A stretch of DNA of 37,807 nt from positions 1 to 37,807 of IMG/VR virus record IMGVR_UViG_3300031976_000938; one strand, 5' to 3'. The notes beneath the pieces were generated by a model. It was not told where the DNA came from, made no database searches, and saw only the letters and a list, made by a program, of their open reading frames with translations. The stretch's first letter is position 1, and each line of letters starts with the position of its first letter. Positions 10,122 to 36,865 of the stretch are shown in pieces. This DNA comes from a virus. The translations under genes were made by a program, and so were the position numbers.

Positions 10122-10152
10122 CCCCATCGCCGAAAGGCGGTGGGGCTTTTTT
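10122..10152. terminator. bidirectional intrinsic terminator between dam (+) and the 130-aa gene (-)
   Basis: 10-bp stem CCCCATCGCC / GGCGGTGGGG (one G-U pair) with a GAAA loop. TTTTTT lies downstream on the + strand and AAAAAGAAA upstream, which reads as a T-run on the - strand. Confidence 0.75.
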
Positions 10153-10167
10153 GTGTCTGGAGGTTGG

Positions 10168-10560
10168 CTAGTTAAGCTCATCCCAGGGCACTGAGCCGGG
10201 CAGATCCTCGCCGGGCTCGCGAGGGCGAACTTGGGCGAGCTTCGCTTGGCGATCGGCGGGCGCTGCGAGCCGGTACGCTTCGAGCGTGCTGATCGCCCTG
10301 CCGTTGGCTGTTGTCCAGACCGGTCGGCCGTCCTGCTCACCGACGCGGATCCAGACCGGCCCTTGGTCGCTATCGCTCCACCGGCATGCCGCCCAGTCAT
10401 GGCCCTGGACGTCATCGGTGCGGGTGCAGGTCGCGACCCTGCCGGTTTCCTGGATGACCAGTTCGAGCTGGCGTTCATCTTTGCGGCCTTGGTCGCTTAG
10501 ATAGGCAATGACAGCGGCAACTGCGGTCACGCCGAGAATGATCTTTGTGATGGTTTTCAT
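10168..10560 (-). CDS. membrane-anchored / exported protein of unknown function (moron candidate)
   Basis: N-terminal hydrophobic helix MKTITKIILGVTAVAAVIAYL followed by a soluble domain with two Cys. It has its own flanking terminators. Confidence 0.7.
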   Translation of the reverse strand: MKTITKIILGVTAVAAVIAYLSDQGRKDERQLELVIQETGRVATCTRTDDVQGHDWAACRWSDSDQGPVWIRVGEQDGRPVWTTANGRAISTLEAYRLAAPADRQAKLAQVRPREPGEDLPGSVPWDELN

Positions 10561-12200: not shown

Positions 12201-12521
12201 TTAGGGGTCGTCGGCCAGTATTCGGTCGATGTCGCCCACTTCAAAGCGGCCTTCACCGCGCCGATATTTTTCAAAAAGATCCTGCACTGCTTCATCTAAA
12301 AATGTTTTGACTGGCACGTTATCGCGACTCTTAGCACGCATCATTGTCAGCTTGCTGTGTGTGTCAGGGTGGGTGTCATACGGAACTCGCCGCAGCTTCA
12401 CTTCTTCTTTCACATCGCGCATGGCGCGCTCTACATGCTTAGGCGCTTCCTTCGGCGCTTCTGTTGCGGCTTCCTTAGCCGCCGCAGGCTTGCGCGTCGT
12501 TAGTTTTTTGCGTTCAGCCAT
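12201..12521 (-). CDS. centromere-binding protein, ParG/omega-like ribbon-helix-helix (type Ib ParB analogue), 106 aa
   Basis: Start MAERKK at 12521 overlaps the parA stop (ATGGCTGA). Basic, low-complexity N-terminal tail, then LRRVPYDTHPDTHSKLTMMRAKSRDNVPVKTFLDEAVQDLFEKY, which matches the beta-alpha-alpha pattern of TP228 ParG by eye. Confidence 0.7.
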   Translation of the reverse strand: MAERKKLTTRKPAAAKEAATEAPKEAPKHVERAMRDVKEEVKLRRVPYDTHPDTHSKLTMMRAKSRDNVPVKTFLDEAVQDLFEKYRRGEGRFEVGDIDRILADDP

Positions 12522-13149
12522 TGAGAGCCTCCAGAATTTCCTTACCCAGCGCTTCGATCTCTTGGCGAGCTTTGTCACTGGCGGGTAGGTCCATCACGCT
12601 TCCGCCTTTGGCGCAGTCTGCAAACGCCACGCGTGAGGTGGTCAGTGCTGAAAAAACGGGCAGATCGTATTCAGCCAGAGCGTCGCGGACTTCGCGCCCC
12701 AGGTGCGTATTCTTGATCGCTCGTGACACTACAAATGCCGCCTTGGGCTTTCCGTCAGTTATGTCTTGTCGAGCGTGGATCAGATCAACGACATTCTCAC
12801 AGGCGTATATATCGAACGGGCTGGGCTGACAGGGGATCAGCACGAGGTCTGCAGTCTTGATCGCGGGCGTGATCAGCTCACTGATTTGCGGCGCGCCATC
12901 CAGTATCACGTAGTCGCAGCCACCGGTCAGGCGGGGCAGGTCGCGAGCGACTTGCTTGCCCATGCCCATTACTGGGAAAACGTCCTCGCTTTCGCGTGTC
13001 TCGCTCCACTTGGTAGCACTTCTTTGTGGGTCGATATCTACAAGCGCCACTTTATAGCCTTGCTGGTGTAGCCAGCAGGCCACATTGGTGGCCATTGTGG
13101 TTTTGCCTGCCCCACCTTTTTCGTTTAGAAAGCCAATAACCTTTGTCAT
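12514..13149 (-). CDS. parA: partition ATPase ParA (deviant Walker A, small type Ib form), 211 aa
   Basis: MTKVIGFLNEKGGAGKTT Walker A motif. GAGGAGG RBS upstream of ATG 13149. The longer track ORF (to 13215) reads through the repeat array and lacks an RBS. Confidence 0.9.
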   Translation of the reverse strand: MTKVIGFLNEKGGAGKTTMATNVACWLHQQGYKVALVDIDPQRSATKWSETRESEDVFPVMGMGKQVARDLPRLTGGCDYVILDGAPQISELITPAIKTADLVLIPCQPSPFDIYACENVVDLIHARQDITDGKPKAAFVVSRAIKNTHLGREVRDALAEYDLPVFSALTTSRVAFADCAKGGSVMDLPASDKARQEIEALGKEILEALNG

Positions 13150-13177
13150 TGGTTCATACCTCCTCGGTTTCTGTGCC

Positions 13178-13217
13178 GTACAATAGTACATTAGCACAAA
13201 AGTACAAAAGTACAAAT
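13178..13217. repeat. array A: five tetramer boxes at exact 8-bp phasing (GTAC aata GTAC atta GCAC aaaa GTAC aaaa GTAC aaat) in the parA promoter region
   Basis: Boxes start at 13178, 13186, 13194, 13202 and 13210, each followed by a 4-bp A/T spacer. Read directly from the sequence. Confidence 0.7.
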
Positions 13218-13529: not shown

Positions 13530-13603
13530 GGGCCACCTATGTATGCATACCCACCCCATACTATACGTATAGTATGGGGTGGGTATGCATACATAGGTGG
13601 CCC
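13530..13603. repeat. telomere resolution site (telRL-type): 74-bp perfect palindrome
   Basis: GGGCCACCTATGTATGCATACCCACCCCATACTATAC | GTATAGTATGGGGTGGGTATGCATACATAGGTGGCCC. The dyad centre lies between 13566 and 13567. All 37 positions of each arm were checked by hand. It lies 133 bp upstream of the protelomerase gene. Confidence 0.85.
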
Positions 13604-13610
13604 AATATAC

Positions 13611-19679: not shown

Positions 19680-19715
19680 GTACTTTTGTACATTCGTACT
19701 TATGTACAAATGTCA
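19680..19715. repeat. array B: GTAC tttt GTAC attc GTAC ttat GTAC aaat GTCA, 8-bp phased, in the repA promoter/leader
   Basis: Boxes start at 19680, 19688, 19696, 19704 and 19712. A minus-strand TTGACA (19711..19716) overlaps the last box. Confidence 0.7.
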
Positions 19716-19723
19716 ATAAAAAG

Positions 19724-19752
19724 TTGAACGCTACGAGACCACGCCATATACT
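19724..19752 (+). promoter_or_regulatory. near-consensus sigma70 promoter pointing away from repA
   Basis: TTGAAC (19724..19729), exactly 17 nt, TATACT (19747..19752). It sits back to back with the minus-strand TTGACA of repA. Confidence 0.55.
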
Positions 19753-19758
19753 ATCCAA

Positions 19759-19907
19759 AGTTGTACCTAGCTTTCACAGCCTGCCCGCTAACAGGTCTTT
19801 GATATCAACAGCTTGGCACAACAGCCAAAAGATAGTACGTCTGTCTGTGACTGGTCTCACAGCTTCCAACGGCCGGGCCGCTAAACCCGGCCGTTGTTCG
19901 TTTCTGG
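19759..19907 (+). ncRNA. candidate small non-coding RNA (about 150 nt) between repA and cI
   Basis: Bounded by the promoter above and a + strand hairpin with a U-rich tail. No ATG anywhere between 19753 and 19900. Four (C/A)ACAGC motifs lie inside it. Confidence 0.35.
19868..19907 (+). terminator. intrinsic terminator-like hairpin, + strand orientation
   Basis: Perfect 10-bp stem AACGGCCGGG / CCCGGCCGTT with an 8-nt loop, then GTTCGTTTCTGG. The minus-strand side has no T-run. Confidence 0.6.
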
Positions 19908-20012: not shown

Positions 20013-20657
20013 CTAACCATCTGGACTGATATCTAGTACATACCCCGTGACCACACCCGTAATACTCCACTCATCGGTGAATTTTCGCATTGGGAACTGC
20101 GGGTTTAGTGCGCTAAAAAAATCCTCAACACCGTCAGTAATGTAGCGCCTGAAGAGCGCTTTACTGGCAGCCTTAGAGAAAGCCACCACGTATTCGGAAT
20201 GCTTTGGCCGACGATCCGGCTCCACGAGAATTACGCCCAACGCGCCAAAGCTAAATGAATCGGTGGTCTGCATTGATGTATCCGTTACGTCCAGCGCAAA
20301 TGCATACTCACTCATTGTGTGAGGCGGTGAAACCCAGCGCTGAGGCTTTGAAACGCCCGGTTGATAGCCGTACTCCAAAGTGTGGTAGTCGCTCCAGGCA
20401 ACAACCGGGACCAGGCGCCGACGCTCTACAGGCAGAGAAAAACTGTGATCGCCTTCAGCCATCGACAGTATGTCGTCGACGGTTACGCCAAGGCTGCGAG
20501 CAATCGATGCGGCCAGATGAACGTTTGGCGTCATCTGGTCGCGCTCAATTTTAGATAAGTAGCCAGTATGGATTTGCCCTCCAGTAGCATCACAAAGCTG
20601 CTGGAGTGTTTTTCCCTGGGCGTGGCGCAAGCGCCTGATCACGTGTCCGATTTTCAT
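20013..20657 (-). CDS. CI-like prophage repressor (XRE HTH plus S24 LexA/CI-type C-terminal domain)
   Basis: N-terminal IRRLRHAQGKTLQQLCDATGGQIHTGYLSKIERD (HTH). The C-terminal domain aligns without gaps to lambda CI from RWVS to LNPQ(Y/F)PM. Confidence 0.9.
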   Translation of the reverse strand: MKIGHVIRRLRHAQGKTLQQLCDATGGQIHTGYLSKIERDQMTPNVHLAASIARSLGVTVDDILSMAEGDHSFSLPVERRRLVPVVAWSDYHTLEYGYQPGVSKPQRWVSPPHTMSEYAFALDVTDTSMQTTDSFSFGALGVILVEPDRRPKHSEYVVAFSKAASKALFRRYITDGVEDFFSALNPQFPMRKFTDEWSITGVVTGYVLDISPDG

Positions 20658-22064: not shown

Positions 22065-22301
22065 ATGGTTGCTGTGAGTGATATAGCGGATATCGCAGGG
22101 GAAGAACAGGAATGGCGTGACGCTGAGCTAGCCAAACGCTTAGCGCGTGAGCAAGCGGCACGCGAAAGCCAGCAAGGCTCTGAGTTTTGCGATGAATGCG
22201 GTTTTGATATTCCGGCGGCGCGCCGTGCGGCAATGCCCTGGGTAACACGCTGCGTGCCTTGCCAAGATTTTGTCGACCGCCAGGCCAAACGTTTTCGATG
22301 A
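22065..22301 (+). CDS. TraR/DksA-family C4 zinc-finger protein
   Basis: CDECGFDIPAARRAAMPWVTRCVPCQ matches the phage TraR signature C-x-x-C...IP..RR.A.P....C..CQ. AGGGGA RBS upstream of ATG 22065. Confidence 0.85.
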   Translation: MVAVSDIADIAGEEQEWRDAELAKRLAREQAARESQQGSEFCDECGFDIPAARRAAMPWVTRCVPCQDFVDRQAKRFR

Positions 22302-22311
22302 GGGGGTGGTC

Positions 22312-22947
22312 GTGCTGGGAGCTCAGGATCTGGCGTATCTGCGCCGTACCGTTGTTTATGCGCATGCAACGCCATCGCCCCGCCGGGCTAGCGAGGAAGG
22401 TAGCGTCGCGCGCTATACCGATGAGACTTATCGAGACCGCACTCCCCCGGCAGGGCCACGCCGTTGGTCGGCTGAAATGAAACGGGCATCAACACGGCTG
22501 ATCGCCAGCGGCACTAGGCCGAAACCGAGCAGCTCTCTCCCGCTGCCGCCGTGGGCGTTTGATGATGCCCGTATCGTGGCGGCGATCCGCACGCTTGAGC
22601 CTGCTCACCAGCACTGGTTGCGCTATGCGTATGCAGACAGCCGTGAGTGGTGCGACGAGCAGGGGGTCACGGTGGCCTTGTGGAGCCGTTTCGAGCCGAC
22701 CATGGGCAAGGTGCAGGCTAAGACGCTAAAAGCTTGCAAGGGGCTGGCACACCTCGCTGCTCAGTGCCACAAAGCGCGTAAGAACAGCGGCAAACCTGCC
22801 CATGAGCCTGAGCGCTTGCAGCAACTGCTCGGCGTGACGCGGGCGAACTGGGACAAGCACTGGTGTGGCCGGTGGCAGACGATGCACCGCTTACTTAACG
22901 ATATCGACCGTGAAGCGCTTGAGGCGCTTTGGAGGGTGACTGAGTGA
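22312..22947 (+). CDS. possible late-gene antiterminator (Q-like), 211 aa
   Basis: GTG 22312 lies 6 nt after GAGGGGG and just after the TraR stop; the track ORF begins at TTG 22270. Function is inferred from its position upstream of a promoter plus tandem-terminator unit. No motif was verified. Confidence 0.55.
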   Translation: MLGAQDLAYLRRTVVYAHATPSPRRASEEGSVARYTDETYRDRTPPAGPRRWSAEMKRASTRLIASGTRPKPSSSLPLPPWAFDDARIVAAIRTLEPAHQHWLRYAYADSREWCDEQGVTVALWSRFEPTMGKVQAKTLKACKGLAHLAAQCHKARKNSGKPAHEPERLQQLLGVTRANWDKHWCGRWQTMHRLLNDIDREALEALWRVTE

Positions 22948-23366
22948 TTAAACGATTAGTGATTGGGATGGCCTGCCTGGCATTGATACCGGCTCCTGCA
23001 AGTGCTTCTGCTGCGGCTGCCGCGATTGCGGCCGGTGCGGCGGCATCGGCTGCGGCGGGCGCGTCAACGTCGAGCGGTAGCAGCCCTGAGCAACTTCCCC
23101 AAGGGGTCTCAAGCACTCCGATTGAGTGGGAGCGCGTAGGCTGGTTGTACTGCCCTTCTCGATTTGCGGAGCCGTCAGGTTGTCGAGAAACGATAGATCG
23201 TGGGTGGCGTAATGATGAGGCGGGTGATGTTGAACCGTGGGTGGAGTGGATGAAACGTCATCAAGGGGCGAATGCCCGTTATATGGGAATGACAAAAGGG
23301 TCACGTGGATCCGTTAGCCTGTTTTACGGCGTGCCTGCTGAAAATGGTGAAGGGGGTGGAGAGTGA
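22944..23366 (+). CDS. secreted protein of unknown function
   Basis: Signal peptide MIKRLVIGMACLALIPAPASA, Ala/Ser-rich linker, two Cys. GTGA overlap with the upstream gene. Confidence 0.7.
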   Translation: MIKRLVIGMACLALIPAPASASAAAAAIAAGAAASAAAGASTSSGSSPEQLPQGVSSTPIEWERVGWLYCPSRFAEPSGCRETIDRGWRNDEAGDVEPWVEWMKRHQGANARYMGMTKGSRGSVSLFYGVPAENGEGGGE

Positions 23367-23692
23367 CCGATCTAACGATCCTGACCGACGACGATCTAAA
23401 CGACATGGTCAGCGATGCTAAAGCAGAGCTGCGCCGCCGTAAGGAAGAAAAGAAGCTGCCGGTGTTCCTGGTGGATGGCTGCTATCACAAGTCATTGGTC
23501 GAGGCGCTCAAAGAGCTTGAGGAAGATGTCCAGTACGCGCTTAACTTCAAAGGCGGCAAGCCTGAAGAATATATCGCTGAGTATCTGACCGATGGTGTTG
23601 AGCGCATGCCCTTTGGCCTGAAAATAGTGTTTTGGAGCGAGAGCGAGTACGCCTCACGTCCTGACCGTGTGTATGGTTCACCGCTGCCATGA
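23363..23692 (+). CDS. hypothetical protein (109 aa)
   Basis: GTGA overlap and GGGGGTGGAG RBS. Confidence 0.7.
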   Translation: MTDLTILTDDDLNDMVSDAKAELRRRKEEKKLPVFLVDGCYHKSLVEALKELEEDVQYALNFKGGKPEEYIAEYLTDGVERMPFGLKIVFWSESEYASRPDRVYGSPLP

Positions 23693-23991
23693 CAGCCAAC
23701 TGCACCCACTGCCAGCACCCACCGGAGCGCCGTGAAAAGGACGGTGCCCTGCTGCTGATCTGCCCAGTGTGCAACAACCGTGGCGAGGCCAGCACTAACC
23801 ACGACTGGGCGGTAGCGTCCTGGGGCCAGGTCAACCGCACCGACCTGCCCTTCTGCTGTGAAGGTAAGCCGGTGCGCTTTAAGCAGCGTAAGCAGGAATG
23901 GTTCGGCGGCTGCACCGGTTGCGATAACCGTGTGGGTGGTTTTATGTCGTTGCAAGGCGCGGTGGCTGGCTGGGCGCGGCGTTTGCGTTAG
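23689..23991 (+). CDS. Cys-rich protein with two Lar-like (restriction-alleviation type) zinc-ribbon modules
   Basis: CTHCQ...CPVCN...AVASWGQ and CCEG...CTGCDN...AVAGWARR. Each half has CxxC...CxxC followed by an A-x-x-W-x-x-R tail, as in Lar-family proteins. Confidence 0.6.
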   Translation: MTANCTHCQHPPERREKDGALLLICPVCNNRGEASTNHDWAVASWGQVNRTDLPFCCEGKPVRFKQRKQEWFGGCTGCDNRVGGFMSLQGAVAGWARRLR

Positions 23992-24062
23992 TACAAAAGT
24001 GCTTTAGTACGAATGTACATAGGTGGGTTAGTTCGTTTGTACTTGTTGACAAAAGTCCGTAC
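23991..24062. repeat. array C: nine 8-bp phased boxes (GTAC, GTGC, GTAC, GTAC, GTGG, GTTC, GTAC, TGAC, GTCC) overlapping the late promoter
   Basis: Boxes start at 23991 and every 8 bp up to 24055. Four are perfect GTAC and the rest keep 2-3 of 4 bases. Confidence 0.65.
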
Positions 24063-24073
24063 CGAGGTAGTCT
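24046..24073 (+). promoter_or_regulatory. candidate late promoter (PR'-like)
   Basis: Perfect TTGACA (24046..24051), 16-nt spacer, TAGTCT (24068..24073). It is followed by two terminators before the first late gene. Confidence 0.5.
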
Positions 24074-24097
24074 ATATGTCAAATTGCCCTAATTACG

Positions 24098-24126
24098 AAA
24101 GCCCGCCCTAACCCGGCGGGCTTTTT
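24098..24126 (+). terminator. intrinsic terminator 1 in the late leader
   Basis: AGCCCGCC-ctaaccc-GGCGGGCT followed by TTTTCGTT. Confidence 0.8.
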
Positions 24127-24146
24127 CGTTCCCGGTGACAACCTTT

Positions 24147-24174
24147 GCCCGCCTTCGTGCGGGCTTTTTTGTTT
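24147..24174 (+). terminator. intrinsic terminator 2 in the late leader
   Basis: GCCCGC-cttcgt-GCGGGC followed by TTTTTTGTTT. Confidence 0.8.
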
Positions 24175-24197
24175 CTGGCTTCCGCTAAAACTCGCTT

Positions 24198-25849: not shown

Positions 25850-25872
25850 AAGCCCAGCAACCGCGCACATTA

Positions 25873-25932
25873 GTACACAAGTACAAATGTACAAACGGCC
25901 TTTTGTGAGAAAGGACGTTTCTACATTTGCAC
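25873..25932. repeat. array D: GTAC acaa GTAC aaat GTAC aaac, then five degenerate boxes (GGCC, GTGA, GGAC, CTAC, GCAC) in the same 8-bp phase, upstream of terS
   Basis: Perfect boxes at 25873, 25881 and 25889. Degenerate phased boxes run from 25897 to 25929. Confidence 0.55.
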
Positions 25933-35184: not shown

Positions 35185-36173
35185 TGCTGATTCCCGGCCA
35201 AAACCGCCTCGCGGATCCTGAGATCGTCGAGGTGCCGCCGTTCGAAGAAATGCTCGCAAATTTCAAAGCGGCAACGATTGCCCATGTAGCAGAAAGCGAT
35301 CCGGCCATGGCGGAAAAGGTTCGCGCTACTTTGGAAAGCGAGCCGGAGGTATTTACCAAATTGGTGGAAGCCGCGACAGTAATGCTACAGACCGAGCGCC
35401 GCCACCGTAATGAACAGATCAAGCAAATGCTAGCTTGGTGGGCAGAGGGCAGCAACCTGGATGCAAAGGTTGCCGACCTGGGCCTGCAGCGTCAAACGAT
35501 CACCGAAGGCGACCCGGCCGCGTTCCCCCCTGTACCGGCGGAAAAAGAAGACGATGAACGCCTACGGCTGCGCTACTTTCTCGCGCCGCACGCGCCTGCG
35601 GCTGGCTCCCGGCTGCATTACCGCGCCGAGGCATTGACGCTGGGCGATCGGGCGCTTGTGACTGTTGAAACACCAGAAACTGGCGAAGTCGTCATCCGTT
35701 ACAAGTTCGCGGGTGATACCTGGGCTGCTCAGGTGAGAGACGCCAAAGGCGTGCGCACCGGCGTCGGTGAGGTCACCGTGGCCGTGTTAGGTCGTGATGG
35801 CGATGGAACGCCCAGCGCTGAGCTACTGGAGGCCCAGCGGGCACACTTCGCTCGCAATGACGTTCGCCCGGAAACTGACGACGTTATAGTCAAAGCTGCC
35901 AGCATTTTACCTTACGAAATAGCAGCGATTGCGTATATTCATCGCGGACCGGATAGCGTCATTACAAAAGGAGAGGCTGAAAAGCGACTGCAGCGCTATG
36001 TCGACGAGCAGCATCACTTGAGCGGCATCGTTGATCCGAGCTGGATATATCATCACTTGCATAAAGCAGGCGCTGTGAGAGTAGGGCTGATCTCACCGTT
36101 GACAGCTATTATTGCAGATTGGGATGAAGCACCGTTTTGTGAACTCCTCACCATTGAAGTGAGGTACTTATGA
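35184..36173 (+). CDS. baseplate wedge protein, P2 gpJ-like
   Basis: 329 aa in the V-W-J-I order with TAATG/ATGA coupling. Confidence 0.85.
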   Translation: MLIPGQNRLADPEIVEVPPFEEMLANFKAATIAHVAESDPAMAEKVRATLESEPEVFTKLVEAATVMLQTERRHRNEQIKQMLAWWAEGSNLDAKVADLGLQRQTITEGDPAAFPPVPAEKEDDERLRLRYFLAPHAPAAGSRLHYRAEALTLGDRALVTVETPETGEVVIRYKFAGDTWAAQVRDAKGVRTGVGEVTVAVLGRDGDGTPSAELLEAQRAHFARNDVRPETDDVIVKAASILPYEIAAIAYIHRGPDSVITKGEAEKRLQRYVDEQHHLSGIVDPSWIYHHLHKAGAVRVGLISPLTAIIADWDEAPFCELLTIEVRYL

Positions 36174-36865
36174 CGCACAGTTTGCTGCCAAAAAATGCGT
36201 CAACTTTAGAGCATGCGTATGAGCGCGCTTTTTTAGAAATATTGAATGACGCTGACGCGCCTTTTCCAGGGTTACTGAACCCCTACGAGTCTCCCGTTCC
36301 GTTTCTTCCTTATTTGGCTAATGATCGAGGGGTCGAAGAGTGGGATAGCGCGGATGATAATGATAAAAAACGCCGTACAATCGCGGCGGCATGGCCTACA
36401 CAACGCTTGGCTGGAACAGGGAAAGCGATCATTACAACGCTGCAGGCGCTAAATTTTAGCGCGACGATAGTACCGTGGCACAAAGAGAAAGATCGAGCTC
36501 AGCCGTTTAGTTTGCGAATTGAGGCACATACGGGTGAAATGCTAGACGACGTTAAATCAAATCGTCTTTTCCGTCGAATACATGCAGTTAAAGCAGAACG
36601 CGATACTTTATCAATAAGTATGCTGCATAAATCTAGCATGAATGTTTACTTAGCCACTTCAGTGGCATCTGGAATTTCAACAAAAGTTTCCCCTCGTGTG
36701 TCTTTTCAGCTTAAGAAAAGTGCTATTAGTATTGCTTGCTTTCAGCATCTATCGTCTAGATACAATATAAAAGTAATGCAAAACAAAATGAACATATCTC
36801 AATCTGAAATTTTTTATTCAGCAACTTGCTATGTTCATCAACATTTAACCGTCAGATCATTGTGA
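36170..36865 (+). CDS. tail protein I (P2 gpI-like) with an atypical AT-rich C-terminal extension
   Basis: N-terminal LLPKNASTLEHAYERA parallels the gpI LLPPSST..E motif. The last about 75 aa are low-complexity and low GC. Confidence 0.8.
   Translation: MTHSLLPKNASTLEHAYERAFLEILNDADAPFPGLLNPYESPVPFLPYLANDRGVEEWDSADDNDKKRRTIAAAWPTQRLAGTGKAIITTLQALNFSATIVPWHKEKDRAQPFSLRIEAHTGEMLDDVKSNRLFRRIHAVKAERDTLSISMLHKSSMNVYLATSVASGISTKVSPRVSFQLKKSAISIACFQHLSSRYNIKVMQNKMNISQSEIFYSATCYVHQHLTVRSL

Follow-up and report, generated by a model that had tools for sequence, protein, structure and literature searches.

Telomere phages such as VP882 are models for the lysis-lysogeny decisions of phages. The prophage of N15 is a linear plasmid whose SopAB centromere sites, IR1-IR4, are scattered, some of them near elements of lytic control. 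Its Sop system reportedly facilitates late gene expression, as the title of a 2008 paper by Ravin, Rech and Lane (J Bacteriol 190:3538) has it. To our knowledge, the partition module of telomere phages like VP882 and the DNA sites belonging to it are uncharacterised.

Two plasmid systems and two late promoters provide the remaining points of comparison. The parH site of TP228 consists of tetramer boxes with regular 4-bp AT-rich spacers and takes up one RHH dimer per box, a pattern of direct readout of the boxes and indirect readout of the AT spacers (PMC3130281). In pSM19035 the ParB is an RHH protein, omega, and the arrays of its repeats overlap three promoters, those of copS, delta and omega (PMC9499535). 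The Q protein of phage 82 has its binding element (QBE) between -35 and -10, and the segment from -31 to +30 suffices for function (PMC4914094), while the site bound by Q21 is made up of two 8-bp subsites in direct repeat (bioRxiv 10.1101/651190).

The DNA analysed here is a viral stretch of 37,807 nucleotides (IMG/VR record IMGVR_UViG_3300031976_000938, positions 1 to 37,807), referred to below as the window. It is related to phiHAP-1, a phage of Halomonas, and the late regions of the two are 83% identical at the DNA level. phiHAP-1 is annotated as a telomere phage with a linear plasmid as its prophage, and judged by its sequence the window is a phiHAP-1-like telomere phage, with a prophage of the same form predicted. 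It also encodes a protelomerase, a 1349-aa RepA, an S24-type CI, a 210-aa CII-like protein and a DksA/TraR zinc-finger protein. Its putative partition genes and the repeat arrays that are the subject of this report are as follows.

12514..13152, minus strand: small Walker-type ParA of 212 aa, type Ib-like
12201..12521, minus strand: 106-aa candidate centromere-binding protein, downstream of parA and overlapping its end at 12514
13178..13213, unstranded: array A1, upstream of parA (GTAC GTAC GCAC GTAC GTAC)
19680..19715, unstranded: array A2 (GTAC four times, plus GTCA)
23991..24042, unstranded: array A3 proper, seven boxes with 4-bp spacers, occupying about -90 to -39 relative to the putative late promoter
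25865..25932, unstranded: array A4, upstream of terS (GCAC GTAC GTAC GTAC GGCC GTGA GGAC CTAC GCAC)

Comparison with described systems

The window resembles the ParF-ParG-parH/OF system of TP228 in that a small Walker ParA is followed by a small, basic-tailed, RHH-like protein, and in that boxes of varying quality, set in a 4+4 bp geometry, overlap the promoter of the operon. It differs in that the 106-aa protein lacks detectable homology to ParG in sequence (no match to PF09274 even at E <= 10), in that its box is GKMC where that of TP228 is ACTC, and in that its arrays lie at four loci, the late promoter and the cos/terS region included, where TP228 has one block of 20 boxes. The likeness to omega lies in a single RHH partition protein (as proposed here) with several promoter-overlapping arrays at genes of replication control and partition, which would tie copy-number control to partition and regulation; omega needs at least four contiguous repeats, and a run of four good boxes occurs in A3. 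The omega repeats, in contrast, are 7-bp non-palindromic heptads on a Firmicute plasmid and serve no phage late genes, whereas the window has a unit of 8 bp and, among its array sites, a Q-dependent late promoter and the packaging region. With N15 the window shares the dispersed sites of a telomere phage, but N15 relies on type Ia partition, an HTH protein (SopB) and inverted repeats, as opposed to a type Ib, RHH-like system with tandem tetramers. A sequence-only reading of the window had presented control through A3 as a layer not yet described. Since omega on pSM19035 and the Sop/IR sites of N15 are close analogues, that claim was overstated, although our literature search returned no description of these arrays or of the 106-aa family for phages of the phiHAP-1, VP882 or VHML type.

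The four arrays of the window

Scanned for three good boxes set apart by AT-rich spacers, the window yields exactly four clusters, beginning at 13178, 19680, 23991 and 25865, against 0.01 expected. The box consensus across them is G-K-M-C, mostly GTAC and largely palindromic, and the 4-bp spacers are 90% A/T. The pair GTACN4GTAC occurs 8 times in the window against 0.12 expected, and the GTAC tetramer as such is neither enriched nor depleted genome-wide (83 against 81 expected).

Array A3 begins on the last base of the TAG stop codon of the Lar-like open reading frame (23989-23991). Its boxes start at 23991 (GTAC), 23999 (GTGC), 24007 (GTAC), 24015 (GTAC), 24023 (GTGG), 24031 (GTTC), 24039 (GTAC), 24047 (TGAC) and 24055 (GTCC), and an additional GTAC at 24059-24062 stands 4 bp outside the register. 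The nine tetramers in strict 8-bp register that the sequence-only reading had placed at 23991-24062, from the Lar-like stop codon through TTGACA, can thus be read directly from the DNA. They score 29/36 against GTAC, the highest value in the window; the maxima reached in simulation were 24 (300 first-order Markov simulations of the window) and 23 (2000 simulations of matched local composition). No period but 8 scores above 20 in this region, which confines the signal to period 8. As a sequence feature, A3 is real and solid, and lies beyond chance. The same reading had called it the third and longest of the arrays. It is third by position, but of four, and its lead over A4 (28/36) is marginal. 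The register of all nine boxes holds, but boxes 8 and 9 are tetramers of a promoter core that relatives keep whichever box type they have, and do not provide independent evidence of the array, which leaves seven boxes as the array proper.

A1, directly upstream of parA, is the expected centromere and operator of the par operon. A2 separates the start of repA (19661, minus strand) from a promoter-like site that faces right, at 19724-19752.

To the right of that site, which reads TTGAAC-17-TATACT on the plus strand, come a conserved CTGCCCGCTAACAG motif at about 19781-19794 and, at 19867-19896, a strong hairpin resembling a terminator; all three elements recur in distant relatives. The arrangement suggests a transcript of about 140 nt within 19724-19905 (plus strand) running toward the 3' end of cI, a candidate regulatory sRNA. 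Neither this segment nor, at gathering thresholds, the window as a whole has a match in Rfam.

The late promoter and its surroundings

The genes around A3 follow the order Q, Lar-like gene, A3 with TTGACA, two terminators, holin-like gene, endolysin, terS and terL.

22270..22947, plus strand: Q antiterminator of the phage 82 family (PF06323)
23689..23991, plus strand: Lar-like gene, its stop codon abutting A3
24046..24051, plus strand: -35 hexamer TTGACA of the putative late promoter, containing box 8 (TGAC, 24047-24050)
24052..24067, plus strand: spacer between -35 and -10, AAAGTCCGTACCGAGG, containing box 9 (GTCC, 24055-24058) and the out-of-register GTAC (24059-24062)
24068..24073, plus strand: weak -10 candidate TAGTCT, 16-bp spacer from the -35, assigned by inference
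24080..24085, plus strand: -10-like CAAATT in the initial transcribed region, candidate sigma-dependent pause element
24101..24126, plus strand: intrinsic terminator 1, GCCCGCC...GGCGGGC followed by U5 (z = -5.2 for 24080-24180)
24147..24170, plus strand: intrinsic terminator 2

By gene content and order, the region from Q to the lysis genes is a predicted Q-dependent late cassette. The window Q is 35% identical to that of phage 82, and the region agrees with the phage 82 PR' cassette in an 82-family Q upstream, a strong -35, an early -10-like element and terminators ahead of the lysis genes; known cassettes, in contrast, have no reported upstream array, and A3 lies outside the -31 to +30 segment (PMC4914094). 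The role of CAAATT as a candidate pause element is modelled on the lambda/82 paradigm, and relatives carry CAAATT, TAAATT or TAGATT at this position. A strict sigma-70 scan does not call the late promoter because TAGTCT matches the -10 consensus in only three of six positions. The assignment is instead based on position, the perfect -35, the tandem terminators and conservation. A promoter core, TTGACAAAWGTCCG, is common to the closer Halomonas-type relatives whatever boxes stand upstream of it, and through this core the late promoter was recovered in 13 relatives; a scan for the exact core pattern returned mostly chance matches, the true relatives amounting to 12 loci only.

The seven boxes of A3 fall outside the position of the QBE, and only box 9 and the GTAC at 24059 fall inside it. 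The spacer itself, AAAGTCCG(K)A(Y)C..GAG (24052-24067 in the window), is kept among phages whose Q proteins are 62-93% identical, and changes (to AAAAGTAAGGG and others) where Q identity falls to about 45%. Since its conservation tracks Q identity, the spacer is a candidate Q-binding element for this branch of 82-type Q proteins.

Concerted change of boxes among related phages

The arrays are not peculiar to the window. phiHAP-1 has them at all four locations, with one or two more, and its late promoter keeps the nine-box register while the spacers diverge. Across the four arrays, the window and phiHAP-1 differ at 11 of 100 box positions and at 28 of 100 spacer positions (Fisher p = 0.004); boxes that differ less than their spacers, together with the A/T-richness of the latter, make a parH-like pattern of readout. 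Some 40 related phages retain the 8-bp register and the four locations, and the box varies by genome:

window and phiHAP-1: GTAC, at parA, repA, late promoter and terS
L002 (Halomonas getboli): GTCC/GGAC/GGCC, at parA, repA, late promoter and terS
contig 3300048851_000034 (type C): ACGC/GCGT, at parA, repA, after Lar, late promoter and terS (all five)
type D: GTTC/GAGC/GCGC, at parA, repA, late promoter and terS
type F: GTAC/GGCC, at parA, repA, late promoter and terS

In distant relatives the late array, of 3-10 boxes, still fills the stretch between the preceding gene's stop codon and the -35. Type C, for instance, has ACGC GCGT GCGT CCGT and then TTGCAA at its late promoter, and nine boxes in its terS array. 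In several relatives the -35 hexamer shares bases with a tetramer compatible with the box type of that genome, as in TTGCGC of type D and TTGACC of the relative L180. A conserved late promoter deprived of its array, the pattern that the sequence-only reading had named as speaking against it, is not what the relatives display: they keep the array at this promoter.

The concordance of box types within genomes was assessed over ten genome types by setting the parA and repA arrays against the 64 nt that precede the late -35. Register-free 6-mers were used because automatic box calls based on AT-rich spacers slip by 1 bp in some arrays. The 6-mer similarity is 0.24 within genomes and 0.14 between them (permutation p = 5e-4), and an objective choice of regions by lag 8 gives a permutation p of 1e-4. 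The concordance of the late array is weak in L006, VP882, L162 and L166. The boxes change in concert at all sites, and the pattern points to one cognate binder, a single sequence-specific phage protein per genome that would read all arrays, that of the late promoter included.

Several arrays depart from the common arrangement. The terS array of the type F genome L186 (3950-3994) is almost identical to that of type D (GCGC GTTC GTTC GGTC), and its structural module was probably exchanged together with its array; in L185, also of type F, the terS array (10150-10225) has GGAC, GCGC, GGCC and GTAC boxes. VP882 (L011) has two arrays, 35725-35779 and 36369-36410, as do the VP882-type genomes L008 and L009. 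One of them overlaps the end of the Lar-like gene and the other abuts the late promoter upstream of gp69, with the small genes gp67 and gp68 inserted between the two. In phiHAP-1 (L001), extra GTAC-type arrays are seen at 23795-23844 and 23037-23093, upstream of HAPgp28 and within a variable region to the left of the par operon; these have no counterpart in the window, and the number of arrays is therefore not fixed.

Lag-8 arrays number 3-6 in the window, in phiHAP-1, in VP882 and in MAR, a VHML-like phage; PY54 has none. PY54 shares the genes for the CII-like protein, 82-type Q, Lar, RepA and TelN, and its partition system is the type Ia SpyAB.

The 106-aa protein as candidate binder

The ParA of the window matches AAA_31 (1e-22), CbiA (3e-16) and the ParA-like phrog_164 (7e-53), and its size fits the type Ib class of about 200-220 aa without an N-terminal DNA-binding domain. 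No ParB-like gene stands beside parA in the window. The small gene that follows it encodes a 106-aa protein belonging to phrog_15913, for which no Pfam match passes the cut-off. Its family comprises 69 proteins, all annotated as hypothetical. The arrangement of the small gene after parA, in the same orientation, is kept at 41 loci, and all 41 loci with a homologue of the protein have an array in 8-bp register upstream of parA.

A basic tail at the N-terminus of the protein is conserved, and its candidate RHH-like core comprises an extended segment at 41-50 and helices at 52-63 and 71-87. Across the 41 loci, the predicted beta-strand tracks the box: RVPYDT goes with GTAC, KIPLLAP with GTTC, RVYF(N/T)G with GCGT or ACGC, and RLPPVYA with GTGC. 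A profile search of the PDB gave a weak match to the CopG-family regulator 7by2 (E = 0.006) across the strand and both helices, and among 22 family members RHH_3 of Pfam was detected in 18 (best 2e-4) and Antitox_RHH in 11, all below threshold. An AF2 monomer model reached a pLDDT of 60 at first and 72.5 with 69 sequences, the core (80-91) consisting of an extended segment and then two helices. A Foldseek search of the PDB with this model returned noise only; a monomer model is ill-suited to an obligate-dimer fold with a long disordered tail. The divergence of ParA, the 106-aa protein, TelN, RepA, CI and the CII-like protein correlates with array similarity about equally (rho 0.27-0.50). All these proteins co-diverge, so that covariation by itself fails to single out the 106-aa protein.

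The 106-aa protein is nevertheless the best candidate, and likely the binder of the arrays. The sequence-only reading had a partition or operator protein act at A3 independently of CI; the concerted boxes and the type Ib layout support the choice of a partition protein, and the RHH assignment is weak. Operators of CI were rejected as an explanation of the arrays, since the CI proteins of the window and phiHAP-1 are 30-34% identical, yet GTAC boxes are found in both.

Proposed mechanism and alternatives

We lean towards the reading that the four arrays are sites of the 106-aa RHH-like protein and act as dispersed centromeres which could couple occupancy to expression. On the model of ParG at parH/OF and omega at its heptads, every box would receive one dimer, with the dimers covering an array cooperatively, and partition of the linear plasmid prophage would rely on the four resulting complexes as scattered centromeres. 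Every array adjoins or overlaps a promoter or the cos/terS region, so that partition-protein occupancy could be coupled to gene expression: parA could come under autoregulation, repA and the divergent promoter could be affected, and the activity of the late promoter could be adjusted. Occupancy of A3 from -90 to -39 and into the -35 would most plausibly damp late initiation in the lysogen, where the partition protein has to be present, and the overlap of the -35 with an own-box tetramer in several relatives fits occlusion. The silencing of the late operon put forward by the sequence-only reading is a possible outcome; N15, to go by the title of the 2008 paper, is a precedent in the other direction, and the late promoters of relatives can carry as few as 3-4 boxes. 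Such repression is not required, however, since the late operon is already gated by an 82-type Q and two terminators.

This last point belongs equally to the strongest alternative, in which the arrays are centromere sites only and A3, placed in a scarce non-coding gap, is bound with no meaningful effect on late expression. The four arrays do fill the main intergenic gaps of a compact genome, the number of boxes at the late promoter ranges from 3 to 10 among relatives, and VP882-like genomes tolerate two genes between a strong post-Lar array and the promoter. We nonetheless consider this alternative unlikely, if still a serious contender: the array abuts the -35 without a gap in most lineages examined, the -35 overlaps an own-box tetramer in several (TTGCGC, TTGACC), A2 displays the same geometry just upstream of another promoter-like site, and known RHH partition proteins regulate the promoters that they overlap. 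Less probable again is that the arrays are operators of another phage regulator, the 210-aa CII-like protein or an unannotated small protein, with no relation to partition. The lack of discrimination among co-diverging proteins, the weak RHH signals of the 106-aa protein and the location of three of the four arrays at or beside promoters would all suit such a regulator. But an array upstream of parA and a small downstream gene make up the canonical type Ib layout, tetramers every 8 bp suit RHH dimers and not HTH operators, CI is excluded, and PY54, with homologues of the CII-like protein, Q, RepA and TelN but a type Ia system, has no arrays.

The precedent of Q21 with its 8-bp subsites, the contact of A3 with the -35 and the A/T-rich spacers might be taken to indicate late-promoter machinery, either a Q-binding element of 8-bp repeats in the style of phage 21 or a stimulating UP-like element. 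We regard this as improbable, because the window Q is of the 82 family, for which the QBE lies between -35 and -10 and -31 to +30 is sufficient (PMC4914094), because the same boxes occur at parA, repA and terS where the Q cassette is absent, and because box type varies among phages under a constant promoter core and spacer. The seven upstream boxes as a Q21-like QBE were rejected on the same two grounds, an 82-type Q with its QBE inside the promoter and identical boxes at non-Q sites. The palindromic GTAC, and the DNA methyltransferase encoded according to the phiHAP-1 annotation, might also suggest a cluster of methylation sites for a phage enzyme, or the repeat might be neutral or a product of chance. 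This is the least probable explanation of all, and very improbable given the array statistics, the strict 8-bp register and the conservation of the arrays with changed, non-palindromic boxes in distant relatives; degenerate boxes could not be methylated, and GTAC occurs at its expected genome-wide frequency. The statistics effectively refute a chance origin, and the methylation cluster was set aside on account of the degenerate boxes and of the non-palindromic ones in relatives.

Should the 106-aa protein indeed bind the four arrays, it would represent a new family of centromere-binding proteins whose box specificities can be read and switched, and four conserved non-coding elements of these genomes would be explained. 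A partition protein seated on the arrays could tie plasmid inheritance to the control of replication and lysis genes, which would make a second case after N15, mechanistically different, of plasmid-prophage partition wired into lytic genes. More tentatively, and on balance doubtfully, the partition protein of phiHAP-1, VP882 and VHML-type phages may be a genome-wide regulator with co-evolved and mutually incompatible box types, through which replication, late transcription and perhaps packaging would respond to copy number and partition status. The natural variants in box type are ready-made specificity swaps and would predict incompatibility groups of co-resident phage-plasmids.

Immunity and telomere regions

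CI (20013-20657, minus strand) is 30-34% identical to its phiHAP-1 counterpart, against 84-86% for RepA and 89% for the CII-like protein. The divergence of CI amid close flanks looks like a swap of immunity modules between similar phages.

A long perfect palindrome centred on TATACGTATA occupies about 13530-13610, between parA and the protelomerase gene, and its core, CCCATACTATACGTATAGTATGGG, is kept in all relatives. We presume the palindrome to be telRL, the site of telomere resolution. Among the relatives, many metagenomic contigs start about 1 kb from the partition-protein gene, which is consistent with the assembly of linear prophages.
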